62,625 nucleotides of DNA from a virus (taxonomy: Duplodnaviria; Caudoviricetes), in the IMG/VR virus record IMGVR_UViG_3300042475_004015, positions 1 through 62,625 of that record. One strand, given 5' to 3'. This document shows, piece after piece, positions 2,384-61,800 of this stretch (within the stretch, counting starts at the first letter, position 1; every line of letters starts with the position of its first letter). The translations under genes were made by a program, and so were the position numbers. The notes under the pieces were generated by a model. It was not told the origin of the DNA. It searched no databases and saw only the letters and a list, made by a program, of their open reading frames with translations.

Positions 2384-3169
2384 CTAAACTTTTGGGTATT
2401 TTGAAGTGATAAACTCTTCAGGTGCTACTAGGTCAGCGAAGATAAGGGGGAAGATTTCCTTAGCGTATGGTAGAATACAAAGACTTAGCCTTCTGATTTC
2501 AGCATCAGCACCCTCGCCACCTCTTAATTCTAAAAAGTGTCTTAATGCTCTTAGGTTACAAGTCATTACCAGCCTTGTTTCTGCAGCATTGGGTAGTAAA
2601 GATCTAGCTGTTTCATTGATACGCTTTTTAAGCTTACTAGGTACTTTAACGTCTGAGTTTATATACCCTAAGTCTTTTTGAAGGTTAATGTAAGCCTGTA
2701 AGCTATGGTCACAAGCAGTCTTAAAGTTATTAATAAGACCCTCATCATTCAAGTCAACTAACAAGGGCGGAATAACAAACTTTAGGTCTTTAGCATCTAC
2801 ATACCGTTGGGACTCTTGACTCCATGCAAAGCCAGCTCTATGACGAACAAGCTCGTGACTACAGGAACGTGAGATACCAGAGATAGCGAAGGAGATGCTT
2901 GAGTGCTCAAGAACAGAGCCGTGTCTTTGCTCTAGAATGTTCTCGATATACTGTTTGCTATCACGACCCTTTTCCCAGGACCGGTAGCAGTGTCTACCAG
3001 CAAACTCAACTAGCGCATCTGGTACCTTAGAAGTAAACAACTGATGTAGCGGGGTAGACTCGTTATCAGCTAGATCGCCTAAACTATGATAATCGACCCA
3101 GTAATCCAGGTTTTCATGACTCATCGTAGACCAAGCAATGGGTACTACTGTAGGTTGTGTAAGATACAT
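2384..3169 (-). CDS. thyX: Flavin-dependent thymidylate synthase
   Basis: HGSVLEH, SHELVRHR...SQESQRY, NLRALRHFLELR, AEIR motifs. Confidence 0.95.
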   Translation of the reverse strand: MYLTQPTVVPIAWSTMSHENLDYWVDYHSLGDLADNESTPLHQLFTSKVPDALVEFAGRHCYRSWEKGRDSKQYIENILEQRHGSVLEHSSISFAISGISRSCSHELVRHRAGFAWSQESQRYVDAKDLKFVIPPLLVDLNDEGLINNFKTACDHSLQAYINLQKDLGYINSDVKVPSKLKKRINETARSLLPNAAETRLVMTCNLRALRHFLELRGGEGADAEIRRLSLCILPYAKEIFPLIFADLVAPEEFITSKYPKV

Positions 3170-3714
3170 AGATTCATAATCCTTTTAAAGTTAGCTTGAA
3201 GAGATATTAATACACTGGCTTGATCCATAGTCAACCCGACATCTTCTGGTAAACCCAGTGTAGAATACTGGCCTTCAACAGCCATATACTTTTTTTCTTT
3301 TTTTAAAGTAGCTTCATAACCCCCTTTATTAAACTCTTTTTTAGCAGCTGCTATAACCTCCCTAATAAAGGTATACGAGCCTATAAGTTTAGCTTTATCC
3401 CAGTGATTACCTATACTAAGAAGATAGTAATTTTTACTTCCACCCCAAAGCCCGCCACGGGTTATCACTAACCTAACATAGTCAACATGATCCGTTACCC
3501 AAAAGCCAAAAACGTAACTCCAACCCTCACCCATAAGAAGCTCGTCAGCTTTAGGTAGATTAGCGATCTGTATTTGATCTAAAAGTAAGTGCCTTAAATA
3601 CTCTGAGCTTGATATACTCAGTTTATGACATTGGTCTTCAATAAAGGCTCTATGATCTTCAGTGATAGAGGTATTGATAGTTACATCTTTATTCTTAAGT
3701 TTCTTGATTGACAT
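3145..3714 (-). CDS. Hypothetical protein with N-terminal ribbon-helix-helix-like segment
   Basis: INTSITEDHRAFIEDQCHKLSISSSEYLRHLL; GAGG upstream. Confidence 0.5.
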   Translation of the reverse strand: MSIKKLKNKDVTINTSITEDHRAFIEDQCHKLSISSSEYLRHLLLDQIQIANLPKADELLMGEGWSYVFGFWVTDHVDYVRLVITRGGLWGGSKNYYLLSIGNHWDKAKLIGSYTFIREVIAAAKKEFNKGGYEATLKKEKKYMAVEGQYSTLGLPEDVGLTMDQASVLISLQANFKRIMNLCILHNLQ

Positions 3715-3776
3715 AGTGACCTCTTTATTTAGGTTATAGTTAAGTTATTATAGATAAGATAGAGGTGAATGATACT

Positions 3777-4298
3777 TTAGATGCTTTGGATATAAGTACA
3801 CCATTGTGGTGCATTACGTTTTGTCCATTTTGGTAGAAGTTTATCAGCGGGCCAACGGGCGTTTAAATATGTACGATAAGCTTCAATAAGAGGTAGGTGT
3901 TTAAAGTCTAAGTCACGCTTTTTAGAAGCAGCAGCATTATAGAATTGTGGTAGATAACCGATAGGTAAGTTATTAATAAAAAGCTTTTCAAAAGGTTGTT
4001 TCATCTCATCGATAGTTTTATGGGACTTTTCAAACCTGTAGACATACTCATCGCATAATGCTATAAAATGTCTGTAAACCCAATATAGATTATCATAACT
4101 ATCAATAGCTTTTTGAGTTATTTGTGACTTTAGGTGACAGTCTTTATAAAGCTTCATATCACCAGTATCAATTTGTGGGTGACGTTTAATAGCGGTGCAC
4201 AAAAGCTGACAATTCTCAAGCACCATTTTACGGACTCGTTTATCATCGAGTGCCTGAGCGCTAAGTACAGGGCAATAATCGGTTACAAAAAGGTTCAT
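3777..4298 (-). CDS. Pyrimidine-dimer DNA glycosylase (Pyr_excise/DenV-like) family protein
   Basis: MNLFVTDYCPVLSAQALDDKRVRKMVLENCQLL, EYVYRFEKSH, AYRTY..K..WT.R..P.W family motifs. Confidence 0.75.
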   Translation of the reverse strand: MNLFVTDYCPVLSAQALDDKRVRKMVLENCQLLCTAIKRHPQIDTGDMKLYKDCHLKSQITQKAIDSYDNLYWVYRHFIALCDEYVYRFEKSHKTIDEMKQPFEKLFINNLPIGYLPQFYNAAASKKRDLDFKHLPLIEAYRTYLNARWPADKLLPKWTKRNAPQWCTYIQSI

Positions 4299-4425
4299 AA
4301 AAAAACTCCTATCAAGAGTTGAATCTTAATAGGAGTCAAGTTATAACACAACACCTTTACACTGGTATTCATTTAAGACACAACCCTTAAATGAACAACA
4401 CGATTTATCATAAACACAGGCATGA

Positions 4426-4725
4426 TTAATTGATACTATTATTTAATGAGTTTTTAATGGCTTCATAGTCGGTATTTAACTGTTCTACAGTTCCTTCATC
4501 TAAGGCCATTTTGCATGATAGCATAAGGTTTAACACTACACTAAGAAACATGACCTTGGAGACGTTAGAATCTGGTAGGCACTTAATCAGCTGATCGTGA
4601 GCTATGGTGTTAAGTGTAGACACAGCTTCGATATAGGAAAAGGCTGCTTCGGTAGCTGTATTTTTAACAGAGGCTTCTACGGCTATACTGTTAATAAACT
4701 TAATGGCTTCATTTTCAATGTTCAT
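4426..4725 (-). CDS. Hypothetical protein
   Basis: ORF coupled to the upstream exonuclease; GGAG upstream of the ATG at 4725. Confidence 0.55.
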   Translation of the reverse strand: MNIENEAIKFINSIAVEASVKNTATEAAFSYIEAVSTLNTIAHDQLIKCLPDSNVSKVMFLSVVLNLMLSCKMALDEGTVEQLNTDYEAIKNSLNNSIN

Positions 4726-5251
4726 TTTTAAGGTCTCCAATGATTTTACAGATCAAGTTAATCTGTGATTTACAGTCGTCTACAGCCTTGTGGGCTGTAC
4801 CTACTTTATCAGCGATAGCATCTTTTCTATACCTTATTCTGTAGAGCTCTTGAGCCGTTCGTATATCCATACACTTCTTGTAGTTAATAGGGCTTCTGTA
4901 GCCAAAAGCCTGTAGTAGAGAGTTAAGAAGGGGTATATCAAACGTAGCATGAGACCACACATAAGTATCCCTATCGATCATACTATCAATACAATCAATT
5001 AAAGAGGAGATAGGGTAACTATCCATTTTAAAGATTTCACGAGCTTCATTCGACTGTTTTAACCACCATTTAATAGTGGATGGGTCGGTAGTAAGCCCGG
5101 CTTTTATCTGCTCGGTCATTGATAGGTGTATATGTAGAGTCTTCAGGGGAGTAGGGTTAGGCGGATCAAATAGCACTATAGCAACATGAGTAACTACACA
5201 TCCAGGGGATTTACCCATAGTCTCTAAGTCAAGCATTGCGTGTATTGTCAT
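4715..5251 (-). CDS. DEDDh 3'-5' exonuclease (Rv2179c-like)
   Basis: MLDLETMG, WSHATFDIPLL, DIRT, HKAVDDCKSQ. Confidence 0.85.
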   Translation of the reverse strand: MTIHAMLDLETMGKSPGCVVTHVAIVLFDPPNPTPLKTLHIHLSMTEQIKAGLTTDPSTIKWWLKQSNEAREIFKMDSYPISSLIDCIDSMIDRDTYVWSHATFDIPLLNSLLQAFGYRSPINYKKCMDIRTAQELYRIRYRKDAIADKVGTAHKAVDDCKSQINLICKIIGDLKNEH

Positions 5252-5553
5252 TTTTTTACCCTACTTTCAAGAATGGTTATTTTAGCTTCTAGGACACCTC
5301 TTTCCCTTTCGCAGTGTATCAGGCTAACCTGCAGTGTATTAACCTCTTTCTCTAGGGCAACTATTTGAGACCTAAGGGAATCTACATGGTTCATTAAGCT
5401 TGATTGGAAGCTTAGATTATTCTTCATAGTTTGCTGATTAAGGTCACGCCTTTGGACCTGTATGGTTTTCACAGCAGCAACAACTGAAGCTAATATAGAC
5501 GCAAGTACTATGCCAAGGTCTTTTAGGGTTTGAAGTTCAAGTTCGATAACCAT
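5248..5553 (-). CDS. Single-TM coiled-coil membrane protein
   Basis: Hydrophobic GIVLASILASVVAAV followed by a heptad-rich tail. Confidence 0.55.
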   Translation of the reverse strand: MVIELELQTLKDLGIVLASILASVVAAVKTIQVQRRDLNQQTMKNNLSFQSSLMNHVDSLRSQIVALEKEVNTLQVSLIHCERERGVLEAKITILESRVKK

Positions 5554-7622: not shown

Positions 7623-7697
7623 GGTCGTCTAGTTCAATGGTAGAACGTCCCGCTCATAACGGGTTAGTTATCGGTTCGAGTCCGGTGGCGACCACCA
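7623..7697 (+). tRNA. tRNA with CAT anticodon (Ile2 or elongator Met)
   Basis: Acceptor GGTCGTC/GGCGACC, anticodon loop CTCATAA, TTCGAGT T-loop, encoded CCA; paired 1:72 so not an initiator. Confidence 0.9.
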
Positions 7698-8008: not shown

Positions 8009-8085
8009 GACCTCTTAGCTCAACTGGATAGAGCACCTGCCTTCTAAGCAGGATGTTACAGGTTCGAGTCCTGTAGAGGTCGCCA
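8009..8085 (+). tRNA. tRNA-Arg(TCT)
   Basis: Acceptor GACCTCT/AGAGGTC, anticodon arm CCTGC-CTTCTAA-GCAGG, GGTTCGAGTCC, CCA. Confidence 0.95.
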
Positions 8086-10847: not shown

Positions 10848-11336
10848 GTGTCTACTAAAGAGTTTTTAAGTCAAGAGTACCTAGAGCTGATGATCCTAAG
10901 GGGCATTACTGACTTTACTGGGCTTCACCTAGGCGGTTTAAAAGCCATGGGTGTTGATTTTAGTAAAGCCTTTTTTAATAATACAAACTTAAATGGTGTT
11001 GATTTTAGAGAAGCTAGGTTCTTTAAAAACAAGGATGTTTTTATCGACTGTTTTATGATAGAAACTATCTTTAAAAGCTGTGACTTATCCAAGGTAGGTT
11101 TCTTTCGTAATCAAATGGCTCGTAGCGATTTTCAGTTGGCCGACTTAACGGGCTCAGACTTTGTTGAGTGTGACCTAAGAGGTGCTATTTTTAATAACGC
11201 TACTTTAAAAAAGACCGTATTTAAAGAATGTATTTTAGATGATGTAAACTTTAGTAGGTCGAGTACACTTGAGGATGCTTCTTTTATTAACTGCATTTTA
11301 GGTGGAGTAACCGTCCGTACAATTAAGATGGTGTAA
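10848..11336 (+). CDS. Pentapeptide repeat protein
   Basis: TNLNG VDFRE ARF; SDFQL ADLTG SDFVE CDLRG AIFNN ATL; TTGACA-N16-TATGAT upstream. Confidence 0.9.
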   Translation: MSTKEFLSQEYLELMILRGITDFTGLHLGGLKAMGVDFSKAFFNNTNLNGVDFREARFFKNKDVFIDCFMIETIFKSCDLSKVGFFRNQMARSDFQLADLTGSDFVECDLRGAIFNNATLKKTVFKECILDDVNFSRSSTLEDASFINCILGGVTVRTIKMV

Positions 11337-16753: not shown

Positions 16754-17153
16754 ATGGAACACAACAATAAATTAGTGCCTTTATTTAAAAACATCATTAT
16801 AGGCACCTTTCAGACGCTTACATTAGCAAAAGCTCATGCTAAAAGGCACTTTCCTAACATGCGAACAGTCATTGTAAAAGATGGCAGTAAATACATCCTA
16901 ATGATAAAGTAGAGAGGATTTTATGGAAGACATCAGAAACCTAATCGACCTTGCTGCTCCTATACTATCACAAGAGGAGCTCAATAACTTTATAGCTTAT
17001 ATAGAAAAAGTGTCTAGTAACTTACACACAATAGTGGATACTGACCTTATTCAAATAAGCAGGGATGAAGCCGAAGCCCTTACTAAAGAGCTGAACTTCA
17101 TCACCTCAGAAGCTAAAAGATACTATCAACACAATACAGGAGATAAGTCATGA
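16754..17153 (+). CDS. Two small hypothetical genes (16754-16912, 16923-17153)
   Basis: AAGGA and GAGGA RBS. Confidence 0.55.
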
Positions 17154-17491
17154 GTAAGTTAATATGTTATTGTTGGGCTAATGGTAACATTGGGTTCAGT
17201 AAGACTCGTGTACCAAAAGGTGCACTACCTGTTGCTACGGGTGATGGTATAAAATGGAGGGGAGAGATAGAGGTTTTATGCAGGCTTGCCTATGATAATA
17301 AGACCTATATAATCTCTGAGGTTAGGGATGCCGTACTTCATGGCGGGGATGCTCTCGAAGCTTTACGTGATTTTATGACTAAGCTGGAGAAGTTGGGTTT
17401 AAAAGACCCTGATACAGTATTAGGTCAAAAGGTAAGAGAGTTAGCAAAGTCTAACCAAGACTTCGTAGATAAAATAAGGAGTAGTATATGA
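17150..17491 (+). CDS. Phage family often annotated as host nuclease inhibitor
   Basis: CYCWANGNIGF...PKGALPVA.G...CRLAYD motif. Confidence 0.5.
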   Translation: MSKLICYCWANGNIGFSKTRVPKGALPVATGDGIKWRGEIEVLCRLAYDNKTYIISEVRDAVLHGGDALEALRDFMTKLEKLGLKDPDTVLGQKVRELAKSNQDFVDKIRSSI

Positions 17492-19374: not shown

Positions 19375-20066
19375 ATGAGCGAGTTTACCGACCTGACTAC
19401 AGCAGTGGTCCATAATAATATCACCTACACGATAAGGCTAGAGTGGACTGGCTTCTCCCCATTGGATAATGATGATGGCTTTTGGCCTTCTAACGACCCG
19501 GAGGATCCTGGCTATGTATTGCCACAACACTATGAGCAAGCATGTCAGCAAGCTCGCCAAAGGTATACTGCTTGGTCTAATGATGAATGGTACTTTGCAG
19601 ATGTTCATATAGATGCGACTATGACTGTAAAGCTTGATCTCTACACCGATAGACAGGTGATCTTCACTAGTGTGGCGATCATAGGCGGTGTAGAGTCAGA
19701 TGATATTGAAAGTATCTGCTGCCTGGCAACTGTGGGTTTACTACCAAATGCTATAGAGTATACCGAGCAACTGATCAACAAAATGGCAACTTTAATACGG
19801 AGCTAATCATGAAAGTTAAGCTGCATCACTATCTACATATTAAGGAGCAGATCCGCAACTCTGTGACAAAACAGCGAGCTGAAACTCATAAAAAGTTCCT
19901 TATATCAGAGGGCAGATACAAGTGTTTAGAGACTCGTTTAGTCTTTGACATCGCTTATATGGCGGACCTCTCGCGTTTCGTTAGTGATAACATCTACAGT
20001 TATGCAGATGATAGCCATTTAAAAACAGCCTACAGGAGGGCTTGTTTAGAGCTTGGTTTACTGTAA
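19375..20066 (+). CDS. Two hypothetical genes (19375-19806 acidic, 19809-20066)
   Basis: GGAGG and GGAG RBS. Confidence 0.65.
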
Positions 20067-20074
20067 ATAGTTAC

Positions 20075-20220
20075 TTTTTATACAGGTTAAGCTTTTTTAA
20101 GACTTACATAATAGCGGTTTTTATACAGGCCAAGGTTTTTTAAGATTTACATAATAGCACTTATTGTAAATCATAAGGTTTTTTAAGGTTTACATAATAT
20201 CACTTATTGTATAGGCTAAG
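20075..20220. repeat. Three imperfect 43-bp tandem repeats
   Basis: TTACATAATA at 20104, 20147 and 20190, each preceded by AAG(C/G)TTTTTTAAG. Confidence 0.85.
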
Positions 20221-20912
20221 AGTTTTTCAGCATAAAATGTAAATGTTGAAAAACCCTTGGCCTGTATAATAAATATAAACCAAATTTTCTACAGGCTATA
20301 TTTTAGGGTGCTAAAACATGTACAACATGAGGGGTCATTTGGTGATTTACATTTTGCGATTCTATGGATCGAATTTTTTAAAGTTTGCTATTCTATGGAC
20401 GCTTTGCTAGCCTATTTTGATCAAAATGTAAAAAGTAAGGGTTTTTTGGTTTGTATTAGGTTGTTGTTTTTAAAGACTATGTAAATCATAGGAAAATTTG
20501 GGTATCAATGAATCGCAAACACACACATTCGTTTTGCTATTCATTGACGAGTATGGATCGAATGTGTATTTGCTACAGGAAAATTTATAGTAGTATTTTA
20601 TGTTGATTTTTGGTTTTGTCTATTAAATAGCAGAGCATCCATTGTTAAGCAAACGAATAATACTTGGTTTTATACATAATAATATAAATAGTATATATAT
20701 ATCAATGTATTATTATTTTTTAAATGGTTTTTTGTTTACAGTCTGAAGCAAACGAGTGTGTTACGCGAAGGGTTTTTGCTATTTAATGGACGGGTTAGAA
20801 AATGGGTAAGTTAGTCGTACCTGTAGTGATAAGATAAGCCTGTAGATAGGTAGTTGATCTTTTGTTGTGAACAAGATAAGATATAAATAGATAAATTAAA
20901 TGGAGTACAAGT

Positions 20913-21749
20913 ATGAGCCAGTGTGTATTAAAAGCTATAGCGGGATCGCTGATAACTTTTTATGTAGTTATCGCGACTCCTCGCGAAATAAACGAACAAT
21001 CAGGGGTAAATTATGTTGATAAAAGCCTCGAAAGGGTCGAAAAATTTAAGCCTAGCATACGGGGTTACGAAAGGTTCCTAGGGAATACTAGGCTCGAATG
21101 CAAACCTAGTTCTGATGAACAAAAAATTCAGTGCCGTTAAGTCGTCCAACTGTAGTAATAGGGGGTAGTGATATGATTAAAAATTTAACCCATTTTCGAA
21201 AGTATATTAAAGATGGCGTAAAGTTTAAGGTATATGGATTCTTTAATGGCCTTGATAAAATAAACTCAGATTATGACCCTGTAGTTGGTAAGACTGTGAT
21301 CATAAAACGTCACAATCGAAGAGGTTTTGTTGTAGCAGATAATGATAAGGAGTATTGGGTACCCTATCCTTGGGGCCCTGGTTTTAAATGCGAAAAACGG
21401 CTTAATAAAACAGTAGTAATACTTTTTAGGCCTGGTCATAGTAGTGGTAAACATCTAATCTTGGAGTTAAATGATGAATGATTTTGGCTATATAGGTGGC
21501 GAGTTTTGGGAAAGACCTGAAATTAAAGGTTTTAAATTCTATTGGAATGTAGCTGTGATACTTAGACACCCTTTGTTACATAATGGGGCCCTAAGTTTAA
21601 TAGCAGACCATTTTAATATACCTAATTATACATTAGAAACTGTTGAAGATTTAGCAGATTTTATGGTAATCAATGGCTATTGTGATTGGTCCCTTAAAAA
21701 TGTTAGTAAAAATGTCTGGATTTTAAAATATGGAGAGAGAAATGACTGA
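20913..21749 (+). CDS. Three hypothetical genes (20913-21140, 21131-21481, 21471-21749)
   Basis: Co-oriented overlapping ORFs; GGAG RBS on the first and third. Confidence 0.55.
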
Positions 21750-21981
21750 AGTAAGTGAAAGACTGGAGAGCTACATCGAAAGATTAGAGAATCTACATGC
21801 AGAGATTAAAGACCTTAAAGGGGATATAAAGCTTGTATTAAAAGAGGCTAAATCAGAAGGGCTTGAACCAAAGGCTTTAAAAGCGATTGTATCCATGAAG
21901 AAGAAAGGCCTAGAAACGGTCAGGGAAGAGATGACCACCGTAGAGATGTACTGTAGTGCTATTGGGATTGAGATCTCCTAA
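21742..21981 (+). CDS. gapR: GapR-like (DUF2312/UPF0335) DNA-binding protein
   Basis: ERLESYIERLENL..EIKDL..DIK....EAKSEG...KALKAIV.M.K...R.E...VEMY..AIG. Confidence 0.85.
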   Translation: MTEVSERLESYIERLENLHAEIKDLKGDIKLVLKEAKSEGLEPKALKAIVSMKKKGLETVREEMTTVEMYCSAIGIEIS

Positions 21982-22419
21982 AAAGTGCCTTAAGGAAAAG
22001 GGCCTAGCCCTAAAAGGGCCTAAGCTTAAAAGTCCTTTAATAAAGATAACATAAAAGCCTGTAGAAAAAGCTACCATACAAGTAAAGTAAATATGGTTAT
22101 TCTCTACAGGCTTATTAGTAGGTAATCGAGCACTATAGTAGTTTTGTTTAGCACTAATTTATACAAGTTACCATTTGTAATATAGTAAAGATTATTCATC
22201 ACCCATGTTGGATTAACAGTAAATAAGTATAGGTTGTTTCCAGCAAATAGCACTGTTATTAGCTGAAAATAGATAGTACATAAGGATAGTTTTATAAAGG
22301 TATTTAAGTTCTAGTCTCTAGCTATGGATGTTCATTAAACATACCAATAATTATTTTTACTAACAGCAAGTAATTCTTACCAAAAATAAGTTATCAAAAA
22401 AAATCAAAGTACTAGAAGT

Positions 22420-22480
22420 AAATTGGTAGAGAGCTTTATGCAGGTGTAAGAAAAAATTGGTAGAGACAAATTGGTAGAGA
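22420..22480. repeat. AAATTGGTAGAGA direct repeat x3
   Basis: Copies at 22420, 22454 and 22468. Confidence 0.85.
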
Positions 22481-22527
22481 CCTTTTGTGGCGGTGACAGA
22501 GATGGCAACATATATGTGGGTTTAATT

Positions 22528-22600
22528 AAATTCATCATAAATTCATCATAAATTCATCATAAATTCATCATAAATTCATCATAAATTTATCATAAATTTA
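22528..22600. repeat. 11-bp tandem array AAATTCATCAT (5 perfect plus variants)
   Basis: Direct reading of the sequence. Confidence 0.95.
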
Positions 22601-22757
22601 TATCAATTTTTAATTAAATAATATCCCTAAAATATATATCAAATTTTATATAAAAATAATCATATATCAAAATGAATTTGAATCAACCTTTTTTGTGTGT
22701 TGTGTTGTGTGACATATATATATGTATAAATTTTTTTCACCCCCATACATTTTTTTG

Positions 22758-22855
22758 TTGCATCATGAAAAAAAATTTTTTAATGTGATTTTATTGATCA
22801 TCACACAACACACAATGATCATGTTCAACACAACACAAAATGAAATGACACAATC
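22758..22855 (+). promoter_or_regulatory. Island promoter 1 and leader
   Basis: TTGCAT-N17-TAATGT; leader ends CAACACAACACAAAATGAAATGACACAATC-ATG. Confidence 0.65.
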
Positions 22856-23290
22856 ATGAAAAATACACACAACACAAAACAAAAAAAACATTTAAACATT
22901 GTTTCAAATGATGAAACAATTTTAAATGATGTTTCACATGAAACAATTTTAAATGATGTTTCAAATGATGAAACAAAAATCAATTTAAATGAATTTCAAC
23001 AATTTAAACATTTTGAAAATATCAAATTGTTTATTGAAACAAACAAAAATGATTTTTTCAAATTGACACAAATTGCAAAATTAATACAATGTGATGCAAA
23101 AACATTGAGACAAAAATTTAGAAAAATTTATGCAATTTTTGATCAATCAAAATTGACACAAATTGTTGCATCACAAAATGACAATGAAAAATGGTTGTTT
23201 GCATTTAATGAAAAAAATTTATTAAATGTTTTGAAAATGTCATACATGCAAAATATAAAAATTGAAATGCAATTATTAAAAATTGCATAA
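22856..23290 (+). CDS. Island ORF1, HTH DNA-binding protein (no Pro or Gly)
   Basis: KLTQIAKLIQCDAKTLRQKFRK...KWLF; own promoter and terminator; N-terminal 30-bp repeats. Confidence 0.75.
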   Translation: MKNTHNTKQKKHLNIVSNDETILNDVSHETILNDVSNDETKINLNEFQQFKHFENIKLFIETNKNDFFKLTQIAKLIQCDAKTLRQKFRKIYAIFDQSKLTQIVASQNDNEKWLFAFNEKNLLNVLKMSYMQNIKIEMQLLKIA

Positions 23291-23305
23291 TCAATACATG
23301 AAATG

Positions 23306-23344
23306 ATTGTGTGATATGTGAAAATGTATCACACAATTTTTTTT
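23306..23344 (+). terminator. Intrinsic terminator of island ORF1
   Basis: ATTGTGTGATA-N10-TATCACACAAT plus T-run. Confidence 0.8.
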
Positions 23345-23364
23345 CATCATCATTCATTTTTTTG

Positions 23365-23456
23365 TTGCATGATGAAAAAAAATATGACATGATATAAACA
23401 TGATCAAAACAAAATGATCATGTTCACAACACAACACAAAATGAAATGACACAATC
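23365..23456 (+). promoter_or_regulatory. Island promoter 2 and leader (duplicate of promoter 1)
   Basis: TTGCAT-N17-CATGAT with extended TG; same leader end as promoter 1. Confidence 0.65.
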
Positions 23457-23921
23457 ATGAAAAACACAATACACATAATGAACACAATGAACATAAAACA
23501 CAACATCACATTTGATGTGAATGATGAAAATTTTAATATAAATGATGTTGATTTTTATCATAAAAACATATTTGATGATATGTATAATCAATATAAATTA
23601 AACATTGATAAAATTGAATACAATGAACATGAAAAAAATTTTTTTCATCATTTTATAAATTTATTTGATAAAAAACAATTTAATAAAATTGTTATTGATT
23701 TTTTGTATATTATGAATCAATTTTGTGAACAACACACAAAAAATGATAAAAACATTTTTTTGCAAAATGTTTTATTTGAAAATGATTTTTATGAATATAT
23801 CAATAAAATATGTTTTGACAATTTATGTGATATTGATGATTTGTTTTGTTTGATTGATCATCATGATGATTATAATGATGTTCAATGTGATATATTATTT
23901 AATAACATTGTAAACAATTAA
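23457..23921 (+). CDS. Island ORF2, acidic Asn/Asp/Phe-rich protein (no P, G, R, W, S or A)
   Basis: 154 open codons in very AT-rich DNA; duplicated leader; terminator. Confidence 0.7.
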   Translation: MKNTIHIMNTMNIKHNITFDVNDENFNINDVDFYHKNIFDDMYNQYKLNIDKIEYNEHEKNFFHHFINLFDKKQFNKIVIDFLYIMNQFCEQHTKNDKNIFLQNVLFENDFYEYINKICFDNLCDIDDLFCLIDHHDDYNDVQCDILFNNIVNN

Positions 23922-23978
23922 ATCAATGTATTCATGATGATGTATATTGTTATATAATGCACATTATGACAAATCAAT

Positions 23979-24017
23979 AAATGATGCAACACATAAAAAT
24001 GTTGCATCATTTTTTTT
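23979..24017 (+). terminator. Intrinsic terminator of island ORF2
   Basis: AAATGATGCAACA-N8-TGTTGCATCATTT plus T-run. Confidence 0.85.
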
Positions 24018-24091
24018 ATTTATATATATCAAATTTTATTTAATCTTTATACACATTTAATGTGTATTGCAACCTTTTAATAATACATACA

Positions 24092-24160
24092 ATTTAATAT
24101 ATATTTAATACATATTTAATACATATTTAATACATATTTAATACATATTTAATATATATT
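24092..24160. repeat. 11-bp tandem array ATTTAATA(C/T)AT x6
   Basis: Direct reading of the sequence. Confidence 0.9.
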
Positions 24161-24320
24161 TTAACCATCACTATCTCCCCATCCATACCACCCCCACACC
24201 TATTTATTGTCAAGCACAGAAATTAGGGGATAGATACAAGAGAAATTATTACTTGGCCAAAGTATTTTCACTTTTAGGTTCAAAAAATTATAAGGGGTAA
24301 ACCTGCTATAGGGAAAAATC

Positions 24321-24349
24321 TTGTATTTCTATATTTCATAGATTATGAT
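24321..24349 (+). promoter_or_regulatory. Sigma70-like promoter
   Basis: TTGTAT-N17-TATGAT. Confidence 0.55.
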
Positions 24350-24382
24350 TATCTATCACTAATCATCAACTAAGGAGTTCTT

Positions 24383-25336
24383 ATGTCACACGAAATCGAA
24401 ACTATCGCATATACGAATGAAGTACCTTGGCACGGCCTTGGGACTTATATCCAAGATGCACCCTCTGTAGACGACATGCTAATAAAAGCAGGACTTGATT
24501 GGACTGTAGTGAAAGCTCCAGTACACGCTGAACACGATACCGGCCTTGTATCAACTAACGAACATTTTGCTCTTGTTCGTAGCACTGACGGCAAAATACT
24601 TGACGTCTGTGGAAAACACTACATCCCAGTACAAAATCGGGACGCTTTAGGGTTCTTTCGATCCTTTGTAGAGGCTGGCGATGCTACTCTTGAAACTGCG
24701 GGTTCACTAAAAGGCGGTAGAAACATTTGGGGACTAGCTAACCTCGGTCAAAACTTCCACCTGAAGAACAACACATCCGACCAATTAAAGTCGTACTTGC
24801 TTATCTCTTCACCTCACGAGGTCGGTAAATCACTACAGATTAAATTTACTTCTGTCCGTGTAGTGTGTAACAACACGCTAACCCTTGCTTTAAACTCGGC
24901 TGCTCAATTCCGTATGTCTCACAGAGTGCAGTTCGACGAGTTCAATCAAGAGCGAGCTCGTGAAGTACTTGGCATTGCAAGAGATGAGTCTAAACAGTTC
25001 GAGCAAACAGCTAATCTACTCTCTACACAAAAATTGTCTCATGATGACATTATCCGAGTGCTACAACCCGTCTATCAACCTGACCATAATCCTGTAGATC
25101 TTATTAATAGTTCCGACAAGTACTTGTCACCAACTATTAAAGCGATCATGTATGCTAACGAAAATGCACCAGGTGCCGACCCCACCACTGCATGGGGACT
25201 GTTAAATGCAGTAACATACTACTCCGACCATGTAGCATCTAGGTCTGTAGATAAACGCATGTATAACGCATGGTTCGGCAAAACTGCTAATCATAAAGAA
25301 AAAATACTTAACACGCTAGTTTCTATGGCTGCATAG
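24383..25336 (+). CDS. DUF932 / TIGR03299 phage-plasmid protein
   Basis: VPWHGLG, AGLDWTV, Y.PVQN, ETAGSLKGGR, RVVCNNTL, TAWGLLNAVT. Confidence 0.92.
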   Translation: MSHEIETIAYTNEVPWHGLGTYIQDAPSVDDMLIKAGLDWTVVKAPVHAEHDTGLVSTNEHFALVRSTDGKILDVCGKHYIPVQNRDALGFFRSFVEAGDATLETAGSLKGGRNIWGLANLGQNFHLKNNTSDQLKSYLLISSPHEVGKSLQIKFTSVRVVCNNTLTLALNSAAQFRMSHRVQFDEFNQERAREVLGIARDESKQFEQTANLLSTQKLSHDDIIRVLQPVYQPDHNPVDLINSSDKYLSPTIKAIMYANENAPGADPTTAWGLLNAVTYYSDHVASRSVDKRMYNAWFGKTANHKEKILNTLVSMAA

Positions 25337-25357
25337 CATTCATTACTAACTATTAAC

Positions 25358-25391
25358 TATAGCCTAGTAAACCTTTACTAGGCTATTTTTT
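25358..25391. terminator. Hairpin terminator between convergent genes
   Basis: ATAGCCTAGTAAA-cc-TTTACTAGGCTAT plus TTTTT. Confidence 0.8.
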
Positions 25392-25716
25392 AAGGGTCGT
25401 TTTGGAAGTCTTCATCGTCTTCGTCATAGTCAGCGGGTAATACTGGAAGGGTTAATCCGCAATTATGACATAGGAGACTTAACGGATCCATGAGTAAATG
25501 GAATAACTGACATCCGCACTGACATTCTCGCCTTACGACCCCGTTACTAGGTGCTACACCGTATAATCTTCTACCTGTAGGTGTTCCACAATCTGGGCAT
25601 TCCACCAAGGCTACTCCGGCTGGTGAACAAGCTACCCATAAACACCCGCACAGGGTACAAATGGCCTCACCTGTTATATGCGGTAGTCGTTCGGTTAAAT
25701 CTACTATGTTAGTCAT
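25390..25716 (-). CDS. Zn-ribbon protein with multiple CxxC motifs
   Basis: CTLC, CPDC, CQCGC, CHNC. Confidence 0.7.
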   Translation of the reverse strand: MTNIVDLTERLPHITGEAICTLCGCLWVACSPAGVALVECPDCGTPTGRRLYGVAPSNGVVRRECQCGCQLFHLLMDPLSLLCHNCGLTLPVLPADYDEDDEDFQNDP

Positions 25717-25719
25717 TAC

Positions 25720-25881
25720 TTATCTCTTTACGATTTTACTTAGTAACCCTACTAATGCTAATAGTATTAAGATAAATATAGGTGTAAGTGTAGGTGAAAG
25801 TACCCACAACCAATTCCAGTCTATATAATCAGTAAGTTTAAGCGTTATAAAAACTAAAGTCAAAGCTGTTAGGAAATTCAT
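25720..25881 (-). CDS. Small membrane protein (53 aa, not in ORF track)
   Basis: FITLKLTDYIDWNWLWVLSP, a common phage LKL..I.W.W.WVL.P family. Confidence 0.75.
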   Translation of the reverse strand: MNFLTALTLVFITLKLTDYIDWNWLWVLSPTLTPIFILILLALVGLLSKIVKR

Positions 25882-25883
25882 GA

Positions 25884-26135
25884 TTACCTCTGTCCTATTT
25901 TAATAGCGATGTAGTAAAAGACTCTGTTACCTGACTTATCCTTAGACTGTGATAACATTGTGACAGACGAAATAAGCCCTTCATTAATTGCTTTATTTAT
26001 GCACCTTATGCTTATAGGAGGGGCTTGATATCCGTAGACAACTTTTTCACCTAGCGGTGCATTGTCTAAAAATTCATTAAAGTCTAATTTTGTTTTAAGT
26101 CTTTTTAGTTTTGTGATGTCGAGTTTTTTTATCAT
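25884..26135 (-). CDS. Hypothetical protein
   Basis: ORF within the minus-strand operon. Confidence 0.55.
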   Translation of the reverse strand: MIKKLDITKLKRLKTKLDFNEFLDNAPLGEKVVYGYQAPPISIRCINKAINEGLISSVTMLSQSKDKSGNRVFYYIAIKIGQR

Positions 26136-59546: not shown

Positions 59547-60007
59547 GGCATTATTACCTTATTGTTAGAGTGATCGAGTAGATATCCTGATGGGGTAACT
59601 TGGTATACTTCTATACCGCTTTTAATCAATAGTGCTAATGATGTGGTATCTCTGTATGCTACTTCATAATATACAGCTTTAATGCCAGCAGCCATTAGTT
59701 TTTCAGCACACACTAGGCACGGTGAGTGTGTTACATAAATTGACTTATCTTTAGCCCATTCACTATTTGGGATAAACCGTATAGCATTATCCTCGGCATG
59801 AAGACTTTTACTGCATCCACCACTTGTTGATAAAGGGCAGTGATTACCTTTGCAGTGTTCTTCACCTGATGGTGAGCCATTATAGCCAATAGAAACTACA
59901 CGGTTCTCTACAACTATAACACAGCCTACATTTAAGCGATGGCAGGTAGACCGTTTTGAGGCTGAACGGGCCATTTCCATAAACATCTGGTTACGACTTA
60001 TTCTCAT
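59543..60007 (-). CDS. dCMP deaminase
   Basis: RSTC, GYNG, HAE, PCLVC. Confidence 0.93.
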   Translation of the reverse strand: MRISRNQMFMEMARSASKRSTCHRLNVGCVIVVENRVVSIGYNGSPSGEEHCKGNHCPLSTSGGCSKSLHAEDNAIRFIPNSEWAKDKSIYVTHSPCLVCAEKLMAAGIKAVYYEVAYRDTTSLALLIKSGIEVYQVTPSGYLLDHSNNKVIMP

Positions 60008-60016
60008 AGGGTTGCT

Positions 60017-60856
60017 TTATTTAGGTGAACCAAAAAGTGTGATGTAGTCATTTACAAACAAGTGTAGGCTTACGATGTGCATAGTAAAAAGTCCAGGCCT
60101 AATTTTGTTCCAATAGTCTGGGTCCCTTAGTCTTAGTTGGTCAAGTACCCAAAGTTGTAGTAGTACAGTCAAGTAAATGTCATCTCTAAAGTGTCTAACA
60201 AAATCACAAGACCTTAGGTAGTAAGTGATGTGTAACTTATCCTGCCTTACTATAAAATGATACCCTAAACTACATGGTATTCTACCGCCATTAACACAGC
60301 CAGTATCCTCTGGGAAAAAGACTGGTAAATAAGCTTGCCTTGTAAGTGGCTGTTCTTTTAAAAGTTTCACCAAGTCGTTAAGATCACCCAATATCGTATC
60401 AGGCCTTACACCTCTATTAAACTTAAAGTGGTCATGGTATGGACTTGTAGGGTCACATATAGTACCACTAAGCTCACCTTGATCGGTTAACCCAGCATAA
60501 GTCGGCCAATATCTCTCCATATAGTTATGGTTAAATTGACCGTTAGCATCACGGAACTTATCGGCAGAGTGACTGTAGGGCCAGTTTGCCCACTCTTTAC
60601 CAGGGTTAAGGGGCTCACCACATACTCTTTCCTTAAAGTGGTCATCCGCCCACGGTAAGTTTGGCTGTATTGCTTTAGCTAATACCGACCTGTCTTCAGT
60701 CTGAACTTCGCAAGTAAAAGAGTGGTTTAATAACTCATAAGTAGTCATAGCACCTTGTTTTGATATGTCTAAACCTTGCCATTTTTCGGTGTGAACTTTA
60801 TAAGACTTATTTTTAAGCCTTATTTTAGCATCTTCTATATATACTTCAAAACTCAT
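60017..60856 (-). CDS. ThyA-fold nucleotide C5 modifier, probably dCMP (hydroxy)methylase
   Basis: TRQAY, IPC, RSCDFVRHFRDD (Asp at the Asn177 position), SLHLF. Confidence 0.8.
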   Translation of the reverse strand: MSFEVYIEDAKIRLKNKSYKVHTEKWQGLDISKQGAMTTYELLNHSFTCEVQTEDRSVLAKAIQPNLPWADDHFKERVCGEPLNPGKEWANWPYSHSADKFRDANGQFNHNYMERYWPTYAGLTDQGELSGTICDPTSPYHDHFKFNRGVRPDTILGDLNDLVKLLKEQPLTRQAYLPVFFPEDTGCVNGGRIPCSLGYHFIVRQDKLHITYYLRSCDFVRHFRDDIYLTVLLQLWVLDQLRLRDPDYWNKIRPGLFTMHIVSLHLFVNDYITLFGSPK

Positions 60857-61619: not shown

Positions 61620-61800
61620 TAATTATGCCCCCTTTAAAGATATTGATAAGGTTATCATGGTTATTTTTAACCTCCTCTGGCTCGCTAGCTGTTTCAACTA
61701 CAAACTCGTCACTATATAGTTCAGAGTTAGTATACTCTACTACAGCCAATAAACCTTTAAGTAGGTCATTTTCTGTTATGGTAATTTGTTTATTAGTCAT
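61609..61800 (-). CDS. Small acidic hypothetical protein
   Basis: Overlaps both neighbours in the operon. Confidence 0.55.
   Translation of the reverse strand: MTNKQITITENDLLKGLLAVVEYTNSELYSDEFVVETASEPEEVKNNHDNLINIFKGGIINAN

Follow-up and report, generated by a model that had tools for sequence, protein, structure and literature searches.

Two candidate autonomous cassettes without a Shine-Dalgarno sequence precede ORFans in an AT-rich island of a lake phage

Introduction

How are two small phage genes expressed that are each preceded by nearly the same sequence, and neither of which has a Shine-Dalgarno (SD) sequence ahead of it? The question arises in a 62,625-nt stretch of DNA (the window, meaning the whole stretch that was analysed) from a lake phage. 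The original prediction had described the locus as two monocistronic immediate-early units, each headed by a copy of one promoter-leader module and translated by SD-independent initiation from an unstructured leader. To our knowledge, repeated promoter/terminator cassettes in front of ORFans have so far carried an SD in every case and come chiefly from T4-like phages. In that setting the cassettes drive phage genome plasticity, and the island considered here would show the same logic in an unrelated lake phage without a usable SD. Its leaders of about 60 nt also offer a natural, compact test bed for start choice without SD in an SD-using host.

Results

An island with a strict dinucleotide rule

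The two genes lie in an island whose composition deviates from that of its flanks (GC 0.18–0.22 versus about 0.39), and which is bordered by repeats.

22521..24213, no strand assigned: the island as a whole, 1.7 kb, about 20% GC
22420..22481, plus strand: three direct copies of AAATTGGTAGAGA(C/G) (GGTAGAGAC repeats) at the island's left border, which may be binding sites (iterons/operators)
22527..22603, no strand assigned: 11-bp tandem array (TAAATTCATCA) in the left flank of the island, repeat family D1
24092..24168, no strand assigned: 11-bp tandem array (ATTTAATACAT) in the right flank of the island, repeat family D2

Within the window, copies of AAATTGGTAGAGA(C/G) with 0–1 mismatch were confined to the left border; in the relative L005, five direct-repeat copies are found upstream of the island and two more before its second promoter. 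The dinucleotides AG, GG, CG, CT and CC are almost wholly missing from the island, with T standing before 143 of its 146 G and A after 171 of its 197 C. Gaps free of purine-G extend over 589 and 1020 nt, compared to a maximum of 66 nt elsewhere in the window. The rule also holds at codon junctions (NNC codons are followed by A in 9/9 and 16/16 cases, and G-initial codons are preceded by T in 28/28 and 33/33), and a tRNA- or codon-level cause was dropped on this ground. A mutation-only origin by deamination was rejected by argument, as deamination cannot remove ACT, TCT, GCT and CCN codons because protein selection protects their C. In relatives the rule is asymmetric between strands: gene A of L015 contains 30 CT/CC but 0 AG and 1 GG, and sense-strand G occurs almost only as UG even where the C rule is relaxed.

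Such a composition could be expected if the island were the leading, first-expressed part of the genome, the rule an adaptation to DNA-level defence, and the units strong early promoters for counter-defence genes. The rule permits only 15% of all hexamers and 22 of the 64 palindromic ones, and the genome as a whole avoids AATATT (observed 0, expected 40), ATGCAT (0/15), CAATTG (0/15.5) and CATATG (0/14.5), none of which is present in the island either. There is published precedent for leading regions devoid of recognition motifs (PMC12455610; PMC10644984), repeat arrays flank the island as they do the T5 injection stop region in the account given in PMC10644984, and the gene B product is very acidic. 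We nevertheless give this explanation little credence. The permitted palindromes TGATCA (6 copies) and TCATGA (5) are not avoided in the island, which displays no general avoidance beyond the genome-wide set, and the L005 island carries 8 ATGCAT and 4 AATATT, neither of which occurs in 9.8 kb of sequence from elsewhere in that phage. Strand asymmetry in relatives is likewise not what an argument from double-strand recognition predicts; together with the ATGCAT and AATATT sites of L005 it also weakened the idea that the rule stems from a general avoidance of restriction sites. Finally, the island sits within a long, co-directional plus-strand block of small genes and not at a known genome end, while the 127-bp terminal repeat of the record looks like an assembly overlap.

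The phage encodes a portal, a tape-measure protein and a family A polymerase; it is not T4-like, and neither are its nearest isolates, which share less than 50% identity. It also has a dCMP deaminase, a MazG-like gene and a thymidylate-synthase-like gene in which Asp occupies the Asn position. No sign of a temperate lifestyle was seen among the annotated ORFs, and an Rfam scan of positions 20000–26000 (E up to 1) returned nothing near the gathering score.

Two ORFans, each followed by its own terminator

The island genes and their terminators are as follows.

22856..23290, plus strand: gene A, 144 aa, pI 9.1, without Gly or Pro
23305..23346, plus strand: intrinsic terminator of gene A (stem-loop 23305–23338), a 15-pair stem, then a T-run
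23457..23921, plus strand: gene B, 154 aa, pI 4.7, without Gly, Pro, Arg or Trp
23979..24020, plus strand: intrinsic terminator of gene B (stem-loop 23979–24012), a 13-pair stem, then a T-run

Because the dinucleotide avoidance is so strict, Gly is missing from the island proteins, and Pro, Arg and Trp are missing or nearly so. Gene A combines a variable N-terminus with a conserved C-terminal part of ~100 aa; the gene B family evolves fast, with 34–82% identity among relatives. Neither protein matched a family in Pfam or PHROGs, and at E values up to 10 only sub-threshold matches were obtained, e.g. to ANT/KilAC and, in 2/7 members, to HTH_AraC. A gene A profile matched no PDB sequence. It recovered only 2 metagenome loci and 3 representatives among 1.84 billion proteins, and none in 185,579 species genomes; a search of IMG/VR did not place the two distant homologues P0009 and P0010, and gene B's own patterns yielded no locus there. 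The helix-turn-helix (HTH) hints for gene A are weak and were taken as leads only. Atlas feature matches of the island proteins (0.80–0.88) were likewise kept as leads.

A terminator scan revealed 3 sites versus 0.2 expected from shuffled sequence, the third being the minus-strand reading of the gene B terminator. Each ORF thus has a terminator directly after it, with a T-run of 8 or more T. The stems, described in the original prediction as CA/TG-only, consist of A and T together with TG and CA steps, and that of gene B also contains a TGCA. The T-run of the gene A terminator is at the same time the first T-run of the second cassette copy described below.

Could the repeats and ORFs be by-products of slippage-prone, low-complexity AT-rich DNA, such as a replication origin or a packaging region with iterons? 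The tandem arrays, the iteron-like repeats and the 20% GC resemble origin regions, and a by-product would also be consistent with the poor AlphaFold models of A and B (mean pLDDT 47.6 and 49.0) and the lack of a Pfam or PHROG family. We regard this as very improbable, given that DNA of 80% AT holds uninterrupted ORFs of 144 and 154 codons, that the C-terminal domain of gene A is kept in relatives to about 50% identity with an invariant Arg and Trp that violate the rule, and that terminators stand exactly after each ORF. Moreover, four sequencing runs from four studies contain the same stretch (96% of sampled words), as do separate IMG/VR and JGI contigs.

A repeated promoter-like block with comparative support

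Two copies of one cassette are present in the window, at 22731–22863 and 23337–23464. In each, a T-run and a CAyCAT spacer precede T7-GTTGCAT; next come a -10-like hexamer, a 5′ hairpin, an SD-less CA/A-rich leader and ATGAAAAA. The repeated element claimed to precede both genes was found as TTTTTTTGTTGCAT(C/G)ATGAAAAAAAA at 22750–22775 and 23357–23382, and the exact 16-mer CATTTTTTTGTTGCAT has its 2 occurrences there and none elsewhere in the window; at up to 3 mismatches, one further window site is obtained (14680, 3 mismatches).

22731..22763, plus strand: conserved block copy 1, consisting of T7, CACCCCCATACA, T7 and GTTGCAT, with the -35-like TTGCAT at 22758–22763
22781..22786, plus strand: -10-like TAATGT, 17 nt after TTGCAT, predicted start near 22793
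23337..23370, plus strand: conserved block copy 2, consisting of T8, CATCATCATTCA, T7 and GTTGCAT, with the -35-like TTGCAT at 23365–23370
23385..23393, plus strand: TGn and -10-like CATGAT (hexamer 23388–23393), 17 nt after TTGCAT, predicted start near 23400

Both -10-like boxes therefore have the 17-nt spacing that had been predicted. The longest exact repeat in 22650–24080 measures 38 nt, while 200 first-order Markov simulations of the same sequence gave a mean of 13.9 and a maximum of 20; the repeat is therefore not due to chance, even in this restricted composition. Similarity is unevenly distributed along the copies, with 43/49 identical positions in the upstream block (22728–22776 versus 23335–23383) and 19/37 in the spacer, -10 and 5′ hairpin arm between block and leader. 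Copy 1 is preceded only by an AT palindrome (22712–22725) and T7, which is weaker than the stem-loop ahead of copy 2.

By consensus, the cassette promoters are weak. TTGCAT agrees with TTGACA at 3/6 positions, and TAATGT and CATGAT agree with TATAAT at 3/6 and 4/6, respectively. A sigma-70 consensus scan listed neither cassette site, and in the region as a whole it called fewer promoter-like sites (13) than in shuffled sequence (27.7). The best support for these putative promoters is comparative. Three island versions in related lake phages provide six distinct units (W_A and W_B in this genome, L015_A, L015_B, L002_A and L002_u2), across which TTTTTTTCAyyAyCATnCATTTTTTTrTTGCA is invariant or nearly so (6/6), while spacer, -10 and leader differ. 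All six nevertheless have a -10-like hexamer at 16–17 nt (TAATGT, CATGAT, TAATAT, TATGAT, CATATT and TATCAT), always with A2 and T6 and in three cases preceded by TGn. In L015/L016, the unit orthologous to copy 1 has TAATAT (4/6) and that orthologous to copy 2 has TGn-TATGAT (5/6) at 16 nt. A hairpin begins 5–8 nt after the -10-like box in 5/6 units, built from three different arm sequences. In this genome the boxes lie 69–70 nt and 63–64 nt before the ATGs, for predicted leaders of 63 and 57 nt, and are the only conserved ones found ahead of the two ATGs; a leaderless mRNA would begin no more than a few nt from its start codon. The units are paralogues, and their shared block, like the upstream AUG box described below, may reflect descent in part and not constraint only. 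A Bacteroidota-type promoter was dismissed: visual inspection of the leaders showed no TAnnTTTG motif, and other genes of the phage use SDs.

At 33 nt, the invariant block exceeds what a sigma-70 promoter needs and leaves room for a dedicated protein or another polymerase. It might be recognized by a phage activator or repressor, for which gene A with its HTH-like product is one candidate, or by an alternative sigma factor or a phage RNA polymerase, and the units would then be regulated instead of constitutively early. Such a factor could explain why the block is kept over its whole length while the -10 region and spacer drift, why the -35-like hexamer is poor and why the scan calls no promoter; gene A, with its basic product and weak HTH hints, is accompanied by the direct repeats AAATTGGTAGAGAC in both island types. 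Furthermore, the block motif occurs nowhere else in the genome and is therefore not the phage's general early promoter. We consider a dedicated factor rather unlikely, however. Neither an RNA polymerase nor a sigma gene was recognized among the ORFs scanned with Pfam or PHROGs, many of which are unannotated, and A2/T6 boxes at sigma-70 spacing in every unit, half of them with TGn, fit the host polymerase. T-tracts upstream of the -35 are, as described in PMC2839356, usual in strong phage early promoters, including those of the promoter-early stem-loop (PeSL) elements. We thus retain host-type promoters as the preferred reading. With regard to the claim of two monocistronic units, the self-contained series of block, leader, ORF and terminator supports it as far as sequence can, and the weak promoter, unlisted by the scan, speaks against it. 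The predicted immediate-early timing found no support in any of the sequence tests.

SD-less leaders with a conserved upstream AUG box

Downstream of the predicted starts, the following elements were distinguished.

22689..22711, plus strand: TG-rich inverted copy of CA-rich leader/5′ coding sequence, 91% complementary to 22866–22888
22795..22821, plus strand: 5′ hairpin of leader A, arms 22795–22801 and 22815–22821, with two TGATCA sites
22814..22855, plus strand: CA/A-rich SD-less leader A, with the upstream AUG box AAAATGA at 22837–22843 and the upstream AUG (uAUG) 16 nt before the start
22840..22848 and 22845..22859, plus strand: mini-ORFs of leader A, the first being ATGAAATGA and the second having a TGA that overlaps the start as ATGA
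23397..23424, plus strand: 5′ hairpin of leader B, 10 pairs
23413..23456, plus strand: leader B, which copies leader A from the 3′ arm of the hairpin as far as the start codon, with its uAUG box at 23438–23444

The two leaders had been called near-identical but for a CA, and indeed 22814–22863 and 23413–23464 agree at 50/52 positions with a CA indel as the sole difference. The inverted copy had also been noted correctly; its pairing with 22866–22888 in a hypothetical read-through RNA was not significant (z = −1.5). Of the claim that the leader is unstructured, the 35–40 nt before the ATG stand, being open in the predicted fold, while a hairpin of 7–10 bp occupies the predicted 5′ end. Leader fold energies did not differ from those of shuffled sequences except for W_B (−12 kcal/mol over a 95-nt stretch, z = −2.35).

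AG and GG are absent from both leaders, hence the absence of AGGAG that had been reported, and a canonical SD (a purine-rich element 4–10 nt before the start) was not found for either island gene. The SD is missing because the island as a whole avoids purine-G dinucleotides. Tested at the first start codon against a generic anti-SD tail, which may not be that of the host's 16S rRNA, 61/85 other ORFs (≥70 aa) paired with −4 kcal/mol or better (median −5.9), in line with the claim that most other genes use an SD; 38% of 613 control windows reached the same value, and the island genes reached −1.3 kcal/mol. When the start was chosen to favour an SD, a core of at least 4 nt was present for 73/87 ORFs and for none of the island genes. 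The initiation region thus appears unable to hold a canonical SD, and to this extent the predicted SD-independent initiation stands. Only two tRNAs were found in the window. A phage-borne initiator tRNA was rejected, as the tRNA-Met reads as having a paired 1-72 end.

What the leaders do contain is ACA, with 11 copies in the 63 nt predicted for A and 8 in the 57 nt for B; the density of ACA is 0.060 per nt over the island and 0.017 over the remaining genome. Outside the hairpin, the leader copies are predicted to be unpaired. In addition, an upstream AUG box, N-A-[AC]-AUG-[AU], lies 12–19 nt before 9/9 gene starts (7/7 distinct initiation regions), and its stricter form AA[AC]AUG[AU] before 7/9. 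The loose and strict forms match 46 and 26, respectively, of all 269 island ATGs. The box is a conserved candidate start signal.

Ribosomes might engage this upstream AUG, translate mini-ORFs such as ATGAAATGA and ATGACACAATCATGA and then reinitiate at the true start a short distance on, or else might use the sole SD fragment permitted by the rule, (U)GUGA/UGAUC pairing with UCAC/GAUCA of the 16S tail. The box at every gene start would be expected under reinitiation, as would the overlap of the mini-ORF stop with the start as ATGA in W_A, W_B, L015_A and L015_B/L016_B. However, the frame relation between uAUG and gene is not conserved, with a start overlap in three regions and none in the four L002 regions, among which the uAUG frame varies, and ATGA overlaps are common by composition, as 49/79 island ATGs are ATGA. 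The frequency of ATGA-overlapping mini-ORFs (3/7 distinct initiation regions versus 8/49 island ATGA sites) was not significant either. Since the mini-ORFs themselves lack an SD, reinitiation would only move the loading problem upstream. Regarding the SD fragment, ATGAATGTGA-type regions give 4-bp GUGA:UCAC pairing of −3.5 to −3.7 kcal/mol, and the best anti-SD pairing in this window is only that of −1.3 kcal/mol given above. Reinitiation or an SD fragment is possible, yet on the whole doubtful.

Exchange of genes and leaders between island versions

The cassette is present in two copies here and in each of L015, L016 and L002, and island content differs among these close relatives: genes A and B here, A and B′ in L015/L016, and A with three other ORFs in L002/L005. 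Genes and leaders are swapped between island versions. W_B tracks L015_B over promoter and hairpin; at the 3′ arm of the hairpin it switches to W_A, which it matches up to ATGAAAAA. Leader B is evidently a chimera in this genome, with a B-type promoter and hairpin joined to an A-type leader, and the near-identity of the two leaders therefore reflects a recent conversion. The predicted duplicated module, of which both copies were found, is accordingly refined into two layers, an old block shared by six units and a recent copy of ~50 nt of leader in this genome only.

In five more distant relatives (DUF932 gene 47–53% identical), no such island was found in the upstream DNA compared (roughly 6 kb at four of the loci, roughly 2 kb at L008). 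The pattern TTTTTTGTTGCATNNTGAAAAA occurred at 4 loci in IMG/VR, two of which were known relatives; the other loci considered as further cassettes, L012 and L013, are AT-rich contigs without the island and were taken as chance matches.

Discussion

We propose that each of the two repeats serves as the regulatory head of its own autonomous cassette in a siphovirus-type lake phage. In each, the T-run of a preceding terminator would lead into the ~33-nt block, followed by a -10-like hexamer 16–17 nt on, a 5′-end hairpin, 35–40 nt of open leader, an ATGA start, a small ORF and a strong intrinsic terminator. The T7-GTTGCAT block may combine an UP-like T-tract with a weak -35, from which host sigma-70-type RNA polymerase would initiate near 22793 and 23400, ~7 nt downstream of each -10-like box. 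The RNA would be stabilized by its 5′ hairpin, and the open ACA-rich leader would load ribosomes through S1-type binding and an ACA/CA enhancer effect, with start selection perhaps aided by the upstream AUG box or by mini-ORFs in place of an SD. The repeated blocks would serve as homology patches for cassette and leader exchange, as PeSL elements do in T4-like phages. Cassette anatomy, block conservation, absent SD pairing, AUG box and chimeric leader B are all established from the sequence and its comparison with relatives. We consider it just on the probable side that the island is a hypervariable ORFan island of PeSL- or moron-like autonomous cassettes that the host RNA polymerase transcribes and whose translation does not depend on a canonical SD.

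A bolder interpretation, which we hold to be unlikely, is that of a purine-G-free module whose starts are chosen by the AUG box 12–19 nt upstream on an open ACA-rich leader. If true, its mRNAs would be devoid of any SD-like, GGA or GGAG element and the genes independent of the anti-SD. They could then be immune to RNases or repressors that target SD or GGA motifs (RegB-like, CsrA-like), or to ribosome damage at the 16S tail, and expression could persist while SD-led translation of host or other phage genes is shut down. Bacterial translation would then have a start signal of a new kind, coupled to an equally new kind of sequence-level escape. Whichever cause underlies the rule, be it avoidance of an RNA-level nuclease or of anti-SD pairing, context-dependent DNA modification or avoidance of defence, it would be of wider interest for phage-host conflict.

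Full-text literature searches, which are no proof of absence, retrieved nothing that describes an island of this type or SD-less early cassettes like these, and searches that touched on the upstream AUG box only indirectly brought up no description of it. Several known systems share parts of the design.

The recognition-motif-free leading regions of T5/BF23 first-step-transfer DNA and of Autographiviridae early regions (PMC10644984; PMC12455610), as these sources present them, are similarly short, variable ORFan regions with strong motif avoidance and repeat-rich borders. They differ by their position at the entering end, whereas the island is placed inside a co-directional gene block; island avoidance acts at the dinucleotide level and more strictly on the sense strand, and one relative's island carries sites that its remaining genome avoids. 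A precedent for selection on purine-G motifs in phage early mRNAs is the RegB/S1 system of T4, which cleaves the ribosome-binding sites of early mRNAs at GGAG (PMC3014915). An mRNA without GGA or GGAG would escape a RegB-like nuclease, and a link to the island is hypothetical; among the annotated ORFs of this phage no RegB-like gene was recognized.

CA-repeat translational enhancers and S1-dependent loading on open leaders are known in SD-independent initiation. The island leaders resemble SD-independent leaders, open and A/U- or CA-rich, in being ACA-packed, open and without anti-SD pairing, and differ by the added conserved AUG box 12–19 nt before the start. ACA motifs enhance initiation in enterobacteria on SD-bearing mRNAs; in the published case (PMC3879156) the enhancer acts together with an SD, which the island leaders lack.

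The island units are also reminiscent of morons. Morons of lambdoid and other phages are autonomous promoter-gene-terminator units of deviant composition. Likewise, each island gene has a predicted promoter-like element and its own terminator, and the island (20% versus 39% GC) is missing at the same place in more distant relatives. Unlike morons, two to four units share one island bounded by repeat arrays, under a strict dinucleotide rule and not just a GC shift, in a phage whose annotated ORFs give no sign of its being temperate.

A further comparison is with the PeSL cassettes in the hyperplastic regions of T4-like phages, for which promoter activity, terminator activity and mini-circles are reported from experiments (PMC2839356; PMC4122927). 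As these papers describe them, PeSLs have an SD at their 3′ end, where the island cassettes have none; their stem-loops are of the GGGG...CCCC type instead of A/T/TG/CA steps and lie between -35 and -10, whereas here a terminator precedes the putative promoter and a second hairpin follows the -10-like box. The island phage is siphovirus-like and not T4-like, and its cassettes are predicted from sequence. In common with PeSLs, they are small composites of terminator and putative promoter, AT-rich upstream of the -35-like box, placed before ORFans and ending at the next start codon. The adjacent terminating stem-loop typical of PeSLs is present too, as 23305–23338 runs into the T-run of copy 2, and so are several copies around ORFans with exchanges that distinguish close relatives. 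As in T4-like phages, the copies may act as homology patches at which genes or leaders are replaced, here seen in the chimeric W_B leader and the differing cassette content.

Repeated cassettes precede both island genes

Upstream of both island ORFs, gene A (22856-23290; 144 aa) and gene B (23457-23921; 154 aa), stand in turn a T-run, a CAyCAT-type spacer of 12 nt and T7-GTTGCAT, with a -10-like hexamer 17 nt past TTGCAT (TAATGT for gene A; CATGAT, with TGn before it, for gene B). The final 50-52 nt up to and including ATGAAAAA are the same in both leaders save one CA indel, and the longest exact repeat measures 38 nt, against at most 20 nt in composition-matched simulations (n = 200). Strong intrinsic terminators follow both ORFs. 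The TG-rich inverted copy (22689-22711) was confirmed; in a read-through RNA it would pair with the first gene A codons, in a fold no better than that of shuffles (z = -1.5). Every sequence feature listed in the original prediction is present in the window.

Relatives were found by searches with gene A, the flanking DUF932 gene and the promoter pattern. All six distinct upstream regions, which come from different genes and different phages, share the block TTTTTTTCAyyAyCATnCATTTTTTTrTTGCA with little or no variation. Alignment of these six units revealed that the sequence drifts downstream of the block while the architecture is kept: at 16-17 nt all six have a -10-like hexamer that retains A2 and T6 (TAATGT, TAATAT, CATGAT, TATGAT, CATATT, TATCAT; TGn in three), a 7-10 bp hairpin begins 5-8 nt past it in five of the six, with three distinct arm sequences, and an open CA/A-rich stretch runs up to the ATG. 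The gene B cassette of the window matches the B unit of the related locus L015 across promoter, -10 and hairpin, and, onward from the 3' hairpin arm as far as ATGAAAAA, its own neighbour, the gene A cassette; an A-type leader on a B unit occurs only in this genome. This chimera indicates that the near-identity of the leaders stems from a recent conversion of ~50 nt between two paralogous cassettes, with the ATGATCAT arm as shared homology. The predicted duplicated module is thus a real repeat, but one of two layers, a block common to six units and a recent leader conversion restricted to the window.

Predicted transcription units

Read with the features of the promoter consensus, a host sigma-70-type polymerase would initiate near 22793 and 23400, with the T-tracts as UP-like element and an extended -10 making up for a weak -35 in some units. 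This putative sigma-70-type assignment is based on comparative conservation and not on a consensus scan, which listed neither predicted site and found fewer promoter-like sites in the region than in shuffles. Termination at 23338 and 24012 would render the units monocistronic in the window; in the related locus L002, three ORFs are apparently served by one promoter. The region's closest fit to the sigma-70 consensus (TTGACA, 16 nt, TACAAT; 11/12) lies inside gene A at 23063-23090, within the conserved coding stretch KLTQIAKLIQ; relatives retain it only in part, which makes it probably a coding by-product.

A dinucleotide rule excludes AGGAG-type Shine-Dalgarno (SD) sequences

The island (22521-24213) has a GC content of ~20%, versus ~39% outside. 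Within it, G follows T in 143 of 146 instances and C precedes A in 171 of 197, while AG occurs twice, GG once and CG never. Purine-G-free gaps reach 589 and 1020 nt, whereas none exceeds 66 nt in the rest of the genome. Inside genes the rule is broken only in gene A, at two AGA codons (Arg) and one TGG codon (Trp). The rule works on dinucleotides, not codons: the codon after NNC begins with A in 9/9 cases in gene A and 16/16 in gene B, and G-initial codons follow a T-ending codon in 28/28 and 33/33 cases, respectively. It accounts for the amino-acid gaps of both proteins (no Gly or Pro in A; no Gly, Pro, Arg or Trp in B) and makes an AGGAG-type SD impossible in the island, as had been predicted. 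In gene A of L015 the C side is relaxed (14 CT, 16 CC; NNC then A in only 8/16) and the G side strict (0 AG, 1 GG; G-initial codons after T in 29/29), an asymmetry that identifies sense-strand purine-G avoidance as the strictest layer of the rule.

Tandem arrays of 11 bp bound the island. Three AAATTGGTAGAGAC repeats lie on its left side, with no other copy at 0-1 mismatch in the genome. These direct repeats, AAATTGGTAGAGA(C/G), all stand in a single orientation ahead of the island (3 copies in the window, 22420-22481; 5 in the related locus L005, 2530-2640), and in L005 two further copies (3555-3600) lie ahead of the island's second promoter; they could serve as operators for the gene A product, which is HTH-like, or as iterons. 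The right border is a C-rich plus-strand tract free of G, with G-runs on the minus strand (24160-24213), and is longer in relatives (L003 830-905; L015 5925-5995). The contigs of L003, L004, L015 and L016 terminate within the island or at its arrays of repeats, which marks these assemblies as prone to break there. The island stretch was found in lake/freshwater metagenome runs, with 96% of sampled words in four runs from four studies, and is therefore not an artefact of a single assembly.

Island versions and genes A and B

Three island versions were distinguished: that of the window; L015/L016; and L002 = L005 = L014 together with L004 = L011. All sit between a GapR-like gene block and the DUF932 gene. 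L003, grouped with the window, combines a 100% identical DUF932 gene with a B gene of the L015 type, and its sequence ends within the island. Gene content varies (A+B in the window, A+B' in L015, A+B'' in L016, A plus three other small ORFs in L002). The island is absent from the fetched upstream DNA of five more distant relatives with 47-53% identical DUF932 (~6 kb for four, ~2 kb for L008). For gene A, only six close clusters emerged from 5.8 billion proteins, with two more representatives at ~50% identity from 1.84 billion; all of these are Gly-free, and the C-terminal ~100 residues are strongly conserved while the N-terminus is not. Its two invariant Arg are AGA in the window and CGA or CGC in relatives. 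Relatives of gene B are 34-82% identical. By these comparisons A and B are real, fast-evolving ORFan genes.

Translation initiation

With a generic anti-SD tail, genes A and B each pair at -1.3 kcal/mol, against a median of -5.9 for the 85 other ORFs, of which 61 reach -4 kcal/mol or better, versus 38% of control windows. An SD core of at least 4 nt precedes 73 of 87 ORFs when starts are picked to favour SD, a count inflated by that choice. Leaders A and B hold 11 and 8 ACA triplets; ACA motifs boost initiation in Salmonella mRNAs (PMC3879156). Moreover, 12-19 nt ahead of 9/9 starts examined (seven distinct initiation regions) stands an upstream AUG whose context is N-A-[AC]-AUG-[AU], the loose context being found in 46 of 269 island ATGs overall; strict AA[AC]AUG[AU] is present at 7/9 starts versus 26/269. 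The most likely mode is SD-independent loading on the open leader, with the upstream AUG box as a candidate start-selection aid. Two variants are live. Reinitiation would draw on mini-ORFs running from such an AUG to a TGA overlapping the start (ATGA), found in 3/7 regions against a background of 8/49, which alone is not significant. Partial pairing with the 16S tail would use GUGA, the sole SD fragment allowed by the rule, which forms 4 bp at -3.5 to -3.7 kcal/mol in ATGAATGTGA-type regions of relatives.

Possible causes of the rule

DNA-level and RNA-level components of the cause each have some support. A codon or tRNA cause is disfavoured, as the rule is also kept at codon junctions. A purely mutational cause is countered by argument only: C-to-T pressure cannot remove ACT or CCN codons without protein change. 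Simple restriction avoidance is opposed by the strand asymmetry in relatives and by the palindromes of the L005 (= L002) island (about 2650-5480), which carries 8 ATGCAT and 4 AATATT, with none in 9.8 kb of L005 outside it. TGATCA and TCATGA are tolerated in the window and absent from both the L005 island and the rest of L005. It is possible that the island passed between lineages that differ in avoidance profile.

Some support for a DNA-level component comes from the compliance of both strands in the window, including flanks outside transcription units, and from genome-wide palindrome avoidance. Outside 22400-24250, by a first-order model for the whole remaining window, palindromic hexamers number 763 against 1056 +/- 33 expected; AATATT (40.4 expected), ATGCAT (15.2), CAATTG (15.5), CATATG (14.5) and TACGTA (13.8) are at zero, and GAATTC (1; 11.9 expected) and TGTACA (3; 20.3 expected) are rare. 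Such avoidance suggests that the host carries many type II systems. A nucleotide-metabolism set lies on the minus strand (59543-62524 and 2384-3169), including:

61793-62524, minus strand, MazG-like pyrophosphohydrolase
60017-60856, minus strand, divergent thymidylate-synthase-like protein
59543-60007, minus strand, dCMP deaminase

An unknown 256-aa ORF also belongs to it, and ThyX is encoded elsewhere. The best PDB matches of the thymidylate-synthase-like protein are to CMP 5-hydroxymethylase (MilA), and it has an Asp aligned to MilA's Asp, at what we take to be the site where thymidylate synthases carry Asn and Asp denotes a cytosine substrate. The set suggests a modified cytosine, and context-dependent DNA modification could be relevant to the C-before-A rule.

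Some support for an RNA-level component lies in the strict sense-strand avoidance of purine-G, which eliminates all SD-like, GGA and GGAG elements. T4 RegB, which uses S1 as its cofactor, cleaves early ribosome-binding sites at GGAG, a precedent for pressure against purine-G motifs (PMC3014915). No RegB-like gene was recognised in this phage.

Genomic setting

The window spans a complete IMG/VR virus record (62,625 nt); its 127-nt terminal repeat is of assembler-overlap size, so the record does not fix the physical genome ends. The phage encodes terminase, portal, major head and tape-measure proteins as well as a family A DNA polymerase (<50% identical to nearest isolates), helicase, primase-like protein and ATP-dependent ligase. 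The island sits within a plus-strand block of small genes (~6.7 to 25.3 kb); the predicted immediate-early timing found no support. Shortly upstream of it, a GapR-like DNA-binding protein is encoded (21730-21981; PF10073, E = 1.6e-19); GapR-type proteins bind AT-rich DNA. A stretch of ~0.8 kb in this presumably early block (20066-20900) has no convincing ORF and a GC near 0.30, and could be a site of regulatory elements or a small RNA; an Rfam E-value scan of it gave nothing credible. The presumably early small genes include a host-nuclease-inhibitor (Gam-like) PHROG match (17150-17491; E = 3e-11) and a pentapeptide-repeat protein (10848-11336), a possible DNA mimic. Genes for tRNA-Met (CAT) and tRNA-Arg (TCT, reading AGA) lie at 7623-7697 and 8009-8085; the 1-72 end of tRNA-Met is paired as read here, and it is thus not a standard initiator.

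Comparison with known systems

Overall, the observation behind the original prediction was confirmed and its interpretation supported in part; its interest comes chiefly from the forced lack of an SD and the unexplained compositional rule around the cassettes. A literature search found nothing like such an island or SD-less cassette, which is weak evidence of novelty. The cassettes fit the moron concept. The closest known kind is PeSL, a composite terminator/promoter element that stands before ORFans in hyperplastic regions of T4-like phages and mediates modular exchange (PMC2839356; PMC4122927). The present cassettes resemble PeSLs in how they are laid out, where they lie and the evidence for exchange. 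They are not of the PeSL family: they lack an SD, have different stems and a different order of parts, and belong to a phage that is not T4-like. What is new is an ACA-rich leader that lacks an SD and carries a conserved upstream AUG box, set in a purine-G-forbidding island.
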